From Octopus vulgaris (lineage: Eukaryota), in contig OX597828.1 of assembly GCA_951406725.2 (NCBI GenBank), forward strand, positions 46,996,001-47,060,000: a stretch of 64,000 nt of DNA, given 5' to 3'. The position numbers and the translations under genes are program-made. The notes below the pieces were generated by a model. The model was not told the DNA's origin. It made no database searches and saw nothing but the letters and a program-made list of their open reading frames with translations. Positions 45,381 to 45,570 of this stretch are shown in pieces; the stretch's first letter is position 1, and each line of letters opens with the position of its first letter.

Positions 45381-45519
45381 ACGGAGATGTACTTGCATAG
45401 CAAGTGATTTGATCTGAGATCGTGTGCTGGAACGAAAGCAATTGCAGCGTGGAATGTGTTTATAAACCATTTAAAACAACACACAAAACCGTTAGATTCA
45501 CTTCAACATTTAAGTTTAA

Positions 45520-45570
45520 TTTGTCAAAATATTTTCTTCGCTTTAAGACCGCGACCTGTTCACTGACAAA
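45520..45570 (-). ncRNA. Minimal hammerhead-like motif, G3-C8 core variant
   Basis: UUUGUCA-GUGAACA-G-GUCGC-GGUCUUAAA-GCGAA-GAAA-AUAU-UU-UGACAAA; perfect 7-bp helix I. Confidence 0.55.

Follow-up and report, generated by a model that had tools for sequence, protein, structure and literature searches.

The minus strand of the 64,000-nucleotide stretch of Octopus vulgaris DNA analysed in this study (hereafter the window) carries a hammerhead-like motif at positions 45570-45520 whose 3-8 core pair is inverted to G3-C8, as can be read directly from the sequence. The motif is real and hammerhead-derived, and it is located within one copy of a high-copy interspersed repeat. In hammerhead ribozymes, the C3-G8 pair positions the general acid. 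The inverted pair is likely to be a family-wide feature of the repeat, judging from the letters of two copies, of which the second gives a purine at position 3. The repeat itself is probably of Penelope origin.

Structurally, the motif has the layout of a type I hammerhead, with an open helix I and with helices I and II placed around the core (Table). The canonical C3 and G8 are absent from this copy, which has G3 and C8 instead, and these two letters form a Watson-Crick G-C pair. All of U4, G5, A6, A9, G12, A13, A14, A15.1-U16.1, and U17 are canonical. On the minus strand, the GAAA segment occupies 45536-45533, the AAUAUU palindrome occupies 45533-45528, and the UUU triplet places U17 at 45527. 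The initial annotation had proposed a G3-C8 hammerhead, and its parts (helix I, GUGAACA, the UCGC/GCGA stem, GAAA, AAUAUU, and UUU) all read as it described them, although it missed the extra G at 45556. It had also correctly noted a mismatch at the base of helix II, where G10.1 (45555) stands opposite an A (45537). With this base pair broken, the present copy is likely to be catalytically inactive. Helices I and II constitute the minimum-energy fold, whose stability is ordinary (z of -1.2 to -1.3), and a search of Rfam with the motif returned no hammerhead match either at the gathering score or at E values up to 10.

Table. Features of the inverted-core repeat and of its neighbourhood (window positions; a dot marks features given no strand).
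Feature	Position	Strand	Basis
One copy of a high-copy interspersed repeat	45381..45570	-	contigs from four public runs
Helix I, 5' strand UUUGUCA	45564..45570	-	sequence, fold
Core G3 U4 G5 A6 A7 C8 A9, inverted 3-8 pair	45557..45563	-	sequence
Extra G between A9 and G10.1	45556	-	sequence
Helix II, UCGC/GCGA stem, 9-nt loop	45537..45555	-	sequence
G12 A13 A14, palindromic helix III region AAUAUU, U17	45527..45536	-	sequence
Predicted cut site	between 45527 and 45526	-	sequence
Helix I, 3' strand UGACAAA	45520..45526	-	sequence
Tail behind the ribozyme; 3' end 146 nt past the predicted cut	45381..45519	-	sequence
Small hairpin in the tail	45405-45391	-	z -1.9 (whole tail z +0.2)
(TA)n microsatellite adjoining the 3' end of the repeat, likely insertion target	45320..45376	.	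repeat scan
5'-flanking (TTG)n(TTA)n tract, adjoining the end of another retroelement remnant	45581..45803	.	repeat scan
Broken non-LTR retroelement end, adjoining the (TTA)n tract	45803-46460	-	peptide pieces; no Pfam match
Degraded 3' end of a probable Penelope-type element with a fragmented GIY-YIG-like frame	30776-31672	+	
Minimal hammerhead with U3-A8, extra A, G10.1-U11.1, palindrome AUAU, C17	31546-31588	+	relaxed descriptor
Second copy of the U3-A8 tail (81%), 5'-truncated, with the 5' half of the hammerhead lost	36616-36739	-	

The repeat is far from being single-copy sequence. Contigs fitting it with at least 80% likeness number 13,617, 9,030, 7,127, and 4,858 in the public runs X1, X2, X5, and X10, respectively, all of which are contig data and none of which is recorded as RNA. 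Summed contig depth does not equal copy number; dividing the peak depth in X1 by a single-copy depth of about 45 gives an estimate of approximately 2,700 to 82,000 copies, the two limits differing in whether a factor of 31 is applied to allow for overlapping words. Part of the stretch is present in 22 of the 24 public runs listed, under four organism labels and one marine metagenome. Eight runs guessed to be RNA contain 0.41-0.47 of the words of the repeat, and one marine RNA run contains 0.12; these shares are not taken to indicate expression or habitat. Exact-pattern scans for copies returned none from metagenome contigs, viral contigs, or GTDB genomes. Four GTDB matches (22-31 letters only) and four viral loci were set aside as chance because they show no hammerhead pattern. 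Beyond 45570, other copies share an extension of about 16 nt in all four runs, followed by AT-rich sequence of various kinds. A complete family unit therefore measures about 205 bp, of which this copy lacks the 5'-terminal part, so that the repeat of about 190 bp in the initial annotation holds as a family but not in its length; moreover, self-BLAST detects no second copy within the window (best other match 17 nt, E 0.19). A different, SINE-like family of 184-217 bp occupies 33877-35075, 43608-44392, 63094-63431, and other sites in the window as dispersed copies and partial tandem runs.

The letters of other copies bear on the helix II defect. At 45537, C11.1 accounts for 87.0, 90.2, 93.2, and 94.2% of the depth in X1, X2, X5, and X10, and U11.1 accounts for 10.5, 8.0, 6.1, and 5.2%. 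The G-A mismatch of the present copy is thus a minority defect, and the 3' strand GCGAC anticipated by the initial annotation is the majority form in all four runs. With C11.1, helix II is closed and reaches 5 bp, with a modelled 10.1-11.1 pair probability of 0.99. No alternative letter attains 3% of the depth in any of the four runs at 45525-45536, which includes the GAAA segment. At 45524, in the 3' strand of helix I, the only variant of at least 3% (3-5%) gives a U-G wobble. Loop II varies at 45545 and 45543, the former differing in about two thirds or more of the depth, and a variant of the helix II CpG makes up 4-8%. The segment 45496-45513, which lies outside the motif, is as free of variants as the core, and the constancy of the motif is therefore not specific to the ribozyme. 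The variant table spans 45408 to 45545 only, about 31 or more letters inside the ends of the compared stretch, and the letters at 45558 and 45563, the extra G, and the 5' strands are consequently outside its reach. For the same reason, the lack of listed variants at 45547-45580 was dropped as evidence of conservation.

Minimal hammerheads of Penelope elements are described as having an extra base between positions 9 and 10.1, a G10.1-C11.1 pair, a palindromic 15.2-16.2 region, and membership in large families (Cervera and de la Pena 2014, PMC4209133). All four features are present here, the extra base in this copy, C11.1 in the majority of the family, the palindrome, and the large family size. 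As in that collection, there is no stable helix III and the motifs are single and dispersed. In contrast to the rows of the same source, the core is G3-C8, whereas none of the 56 rows compared from its Figure S3 has G3 (53 are CUGA and three are UUGA); helix I is 7 bp long versus 2-6 in the rows compared; and the repeat has no linked parent reading frame. A U3-A8 core variant is known from Schistosoma Penelope-like elements (PMC4209133).

The repeat also resembles elements of the Hydra clade (Craig et al. 2021, PMC8557442) in its probable (TA)n target and in having the hammerhead at a distance of about 100-200 nt from its 3' end. In that source, (TA)n is given as the preferred target for most Hydra-clade elements and for two Naiad rows. 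The extra G after A9 is shared with several Hydra-clade members in File S2, and on this ground it was dropped as a further defect of the present copy; its modelled pairing competition for C11.1 is only 0.001. The clade differs from the repeat in its core, which is CUGA-N-GA in all 34 motif rows listed in File S2, from Chlamys, Hydra, and others. Five repeat motifs of 11-14 nt are absent from the available supplement of PMC8557442, in which line breaks or cut cells could hide matches, and nothing found in that supplement ties the repeat to the published consensus sequences of Naiad or Hydra. A full-text search of the literature for the five motifs gave no matches.

A second unusual hammerhead, with a U3-A8 core, is found in the same window, about 210 nt behind a decayed reading frame that has GIY-YIG-like neighbours in the ESM Atlas, with GIY-YIG on only 11-27% of the members of these neighbours. 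Pfam gives no match for the GIY-YIG-like endonuclease pieces, and the U3-A8 motif also scores below the Rfam gathering threshold. The element stops at a (TAT)n tract that lies 90 nt beyond its cut site, a distance close to the 85-92 nt implied for the anole element PAc by a cut at +26 and a start of copying at +111-118 (PMC11167929). The G3-C8 repeat and the U3-A8 tail have the same order of hammerhead, tail, and microsatellite, with tails of 146 versus 90 nt, and share no detected sequence similarity. Next to the G3-C8 repeat, the window holds no Penelope reading frame. This copy adjoins (TA)n, AT-rich flanks occur elsewhere, and opposite-strand joints are present in one or two contigs per run. 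Such joints could correspond to copies that are inverted and 5'-truncated, an arrangement described for Penelope elements (PMC8557442). Short non-autonomous Penelope derivatives are a known kind of element (bioRxiv 10.64898/2026.07.22.740005).

Several other features of the window were noted. An O-methyltransferase exon lies at 12666-12860 on the plus strand (PF08100, E 1.4e-10), and additional exons are likely around 13.5 and 14.7-15.1 kb. A tandem array at 17450-18609 comprises 34 copies of a 34-bp unit with 98% identity, and a GC-rich low-complexity array of the GCG/GCA type, about 2.9 kb in length and with long open frames on both strands, covers 46808-49715. Pieces on the minus strand at 57142-57862 have a helix-turn-helix match, and we take them to resemble a decayed transposase of the mariner type. 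The peptide pieces at 45803-46460 presumably resemble restriction-like endonuclease elements such as Dong/R4.

We tentatively favour, at somewhat less than even confidence, an explanation in which the repeat comes from a Penelope-like 3' tail and carries a minimal type I G3-C8 hammerhead, one that is slow and assisted by dimer formation or by protein, with this copy likely inactive. In the proposed mechanism, the repeat would be transcribed inside longer RNAs, and an AT-rich microsatellite would be nicked by a reverse transcriptase/endonuclease of the Penelope type that is provided in trans. The enzyme would then begin to copy from a constant position within the RNA, 146 nt past the cut site, pass through the ribozyme, which would be largely uncut, and halt about 16 nt beyond helix I on its upstream side. 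Read-through to this point is proposed to be the reason that both hammerhead halves are kept in dispersed single copies. Two motifs could pair via AAUAUU to create helix III. That positions 3 and 8 are both altered and yet complementary, with the remainder of the core canonical, suggests that the pair was selected in the master element.

Experiments with engineered ribozymes indicate what activity such a core might have. In PAc, a single C3G or G8C change abolishes cutting and the double mutant partly restores it (PMC11167929), and a review reports that G8C causes a 10^5-fold loss with partial rescue by C3G (PMC8495972). These C3G/G8C mutants (sTRSV/Schistosoma in PMC8495972, PAc in PMC11167929) have the same inverted pair and partial activity; however, they are made in the laboratory, whereas here the pair occurs in genomic copies and is accompanied by U17 instead of C17. 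Kalweit and Hammann state that, in a G3-C8 variant, G17 allows higher activity than C17, the data being not shown there (PMC3884650), and the U17 of the present motif may soften the clash of the swapped pair with C17. PAc cutting requires protein, and uncut RNA is its main insertion template (PMC11167929). An uncut template combined with the partial activity of the swapped pair would allow copies to retain both halves of the motif and would make a slow core tolerable. In model folds, helix III formation by AAUAUU in a dimer is marginal, at a cost of 1.8 kcal/mol, and a complete double hammerhead that includes helix III is less stable than the best dimer fold by about 5 kcal/mol. Pairing of G3 with U17 extends helix I with a probability of about 0.7, a possible trap. 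The narrower claim that a G3-C8 master element truly cuts, slowly and under the control of pairing or of a Penelope protein, and that it spread thousands of copies is unlikely.

The main alternative, which we regard as somewhat unlikely, is that the tail is of Penelope type and the entire family is catalytically silent, with the swapped core fixed in the master and amplified because insertion does not depend on cutting, and with the fold perhaps serving only as a recognition structure. Catalytically dead ribozyme mutants leave PAc insertion unaffected and no RNA ends are found at the cut site (PMC11167929); the copies of the octopus repeat retain both sides of the cut site; and the G3-U17 pairing competes with the core. 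In addition, eight of nine predicted Xenopus retrozyme dimers remained uncut in vitro (bioRxiv 10.64898/2026.07.22.740005). Against silence stand the partial activity of the engineered swap (PMC8495972, PMC11167929) and our inference that neutral drift would rarely yield a complementary change at positions 3 and 8 with the other core letters intact.

It is quite improbable that the repeat is a dispersed monomer of a non-LTR retrozyme, whose master tandem array would give rise to circular RNA through double hammerhead cleavage. The repeat is like these elements in being short, non-coding, dispersed as monomers, likely Penelope-derived, and equipped with a type I hammerhead (PMC7229834; bioRxiv 10.64898/2026.07.22.740005). 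Its size falls within their 150-450 bp, retrozyme families may contain monomers in any proportion, and an origin from Penelope tails has been proposed for them in the same two sources. However, non-LTR retrozymes are defined by tandem units, whereas the repeat stands alone in the window and has a non-canonical core. At the 45381 end, the flanks of other copies (loose ends before 45379) have no common sequence, with an agreement of 0.45-0.47 and a median length of 255, which argues against tandem units, as does the absence of a joint linking 45381 to the 5' end among the 15 listed of 33 joints. Of those 15, seven link opposite strands and six of the seven restart at 45567-45576, on the basis of one or two contigs per run at 80% likeness. 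One joint, from 45570 to 45512 with a depth of 431 in X1, may be a hammerhead tandem of about 60 nt, as a retrozyme would allow, or an inverted junction. Copies do not begin at the cut site, and no hotspot of contig starts or ends is listed, contigs being a poor test of this point. No tandem neighbour adjoins this copy, and the flanks of most copies are unrelated, although a master array could escape contigs this short.

The breadth of the inverted pair within the family rests on a second readable copy. A phmmer search with the antisense frame of the motif led to P0003 (Logan, three contigs), which is the translation of another, independent copy of the repeat. The other four of the five hits were unrelated repetitive proteins and were discarded. 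Antisense-frame protein searches returned nothing at 30-97 amino acids and three candidates at greater length, none of them scoring, and a search with the tail of P0003 returned only P0003. The codons of P0003 fix C8, A9, G10.1, U10.2, G10.4, C10.5, C11.1, A14, A15.1, U16.1, and U17, restrict position 3 to G or A (C and U being excluded), and show that G12 is lost, so that its 3-8 pair can be G-C or A-C. It reads ATCSLTK, where a C3-G8 copy would give ATSSVTK. The canonical 3-8 pair is therefore missing from both of the copies that can be read, this one and P0003. C8 and a purine at position 3 thus recur as the initial annotation had expected of the family, while the invariance that it foresaw is more than a sample of two copies can show.

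A confinement of G3-C8 to a subfamily, with a founder whose core was canonical or U3-A8, is a reading of low probability. Positions 45563 and 45558 are beyond the variant table, and the ratio of depth at the hammerhead end to that at the opposite end is 1.0-1.26 in X1 and 0.35-0.71 in the other three runs, a shortfall that might reflect either a divergent subfamily or 5' truncation. Nevertheless, P0003 differs from this copy in loop II, at 11.1, and in the 16-nt extension and yet has C8. In X1, depth declines no faster at the hammerhead end than at the other end, and the loose ends begin at 45570 rather than within the core, which is a weak indication in the same direction.

Two descriptors were used to gauge how often such a motif arises by chance. 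The relaxed version, written after the motif had been seen, allows any letters at positions 3 and 8, makes the extra base optional, requires no palindrome, and accepts a helix I of at least 4 bp, and thus does not impose the 3-8 pair, the extra base, or the palindrome. It yields two matches in the window, each of which combines a Watson-Crick 3-8 pair with the extra base and a palindrome. When the window is dinucleotide-shuffled 500 times, the same version yields 249 matches, of which four combine these three features, one of the four with a helix I of at least 6 bp. A stricter version, requiring a complementary 3-8 pair and a helix I of at least 5 bp, also gives two matches in the window, and finds a match in two of 60 shuffles, none with a helix I of 7 bp. 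The tail contains a small hairpin, separated by 10 nt from the 3' end of the repeat, that we assume to be reminiscent of Helitrons. Least probable of all is a chance look-alike in an unrelated short repeat, such as a miniature DNA transposon or a Helitron-type or SINE fragment: this hairpin, the lack of an Rfam match, a fold z of only -1.3, and the post hoc descriptor would suit it, but the three unimposed features occur in four of 249 shuffle matches versus two of two real ones, the C11.1 majority came out as predicted, and the window has no tRNA genes and the repeat no clear terminal inverted repeat by eye.

Full-text searches found no natural G3-C8 core in print, in a comparison that stood apart from the 2017 alignments of Lunse et al. 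and of Arkhipova et al., which are reportedly the largest sets of Penelope hammerhead variants. Within the same bounds, G3-C8 was met in print only as laboratory mutants, in agreement with the view of the initial annotation that the swap is mainly an engineered one. The available portions of PMC6765202, PMC6155905, PMC7151607, PMC11014351, PMC7229834, and PMC6962438 contain no natural case. The natural 3-8 covariation that has been reported is U3-A8 (Perreault 2011).

A natural G3-C8 family, if true, would complete the evidence for natural 3-8 covariation, U3-A8 being the only such change that we found in print, and it would mean that standard search patterns overlook abundant hammerhead variants. 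It would also offer a test case for why ribozymes with so little cutting activity are retained by Penelope elements. A silent family would still mean that a hammerhead-derived fold has been amplified thousands-fold following the rewiring of its core. If instead an active G3-C8 core is true, one genome would hold two non-canonical core pairs, with the U3-A8 motif only 14 kb away, and searches for CUGANGA would have missed a layer of ribozymes, possibly including some in Penelope clades that have been reported to lack hammerheads.
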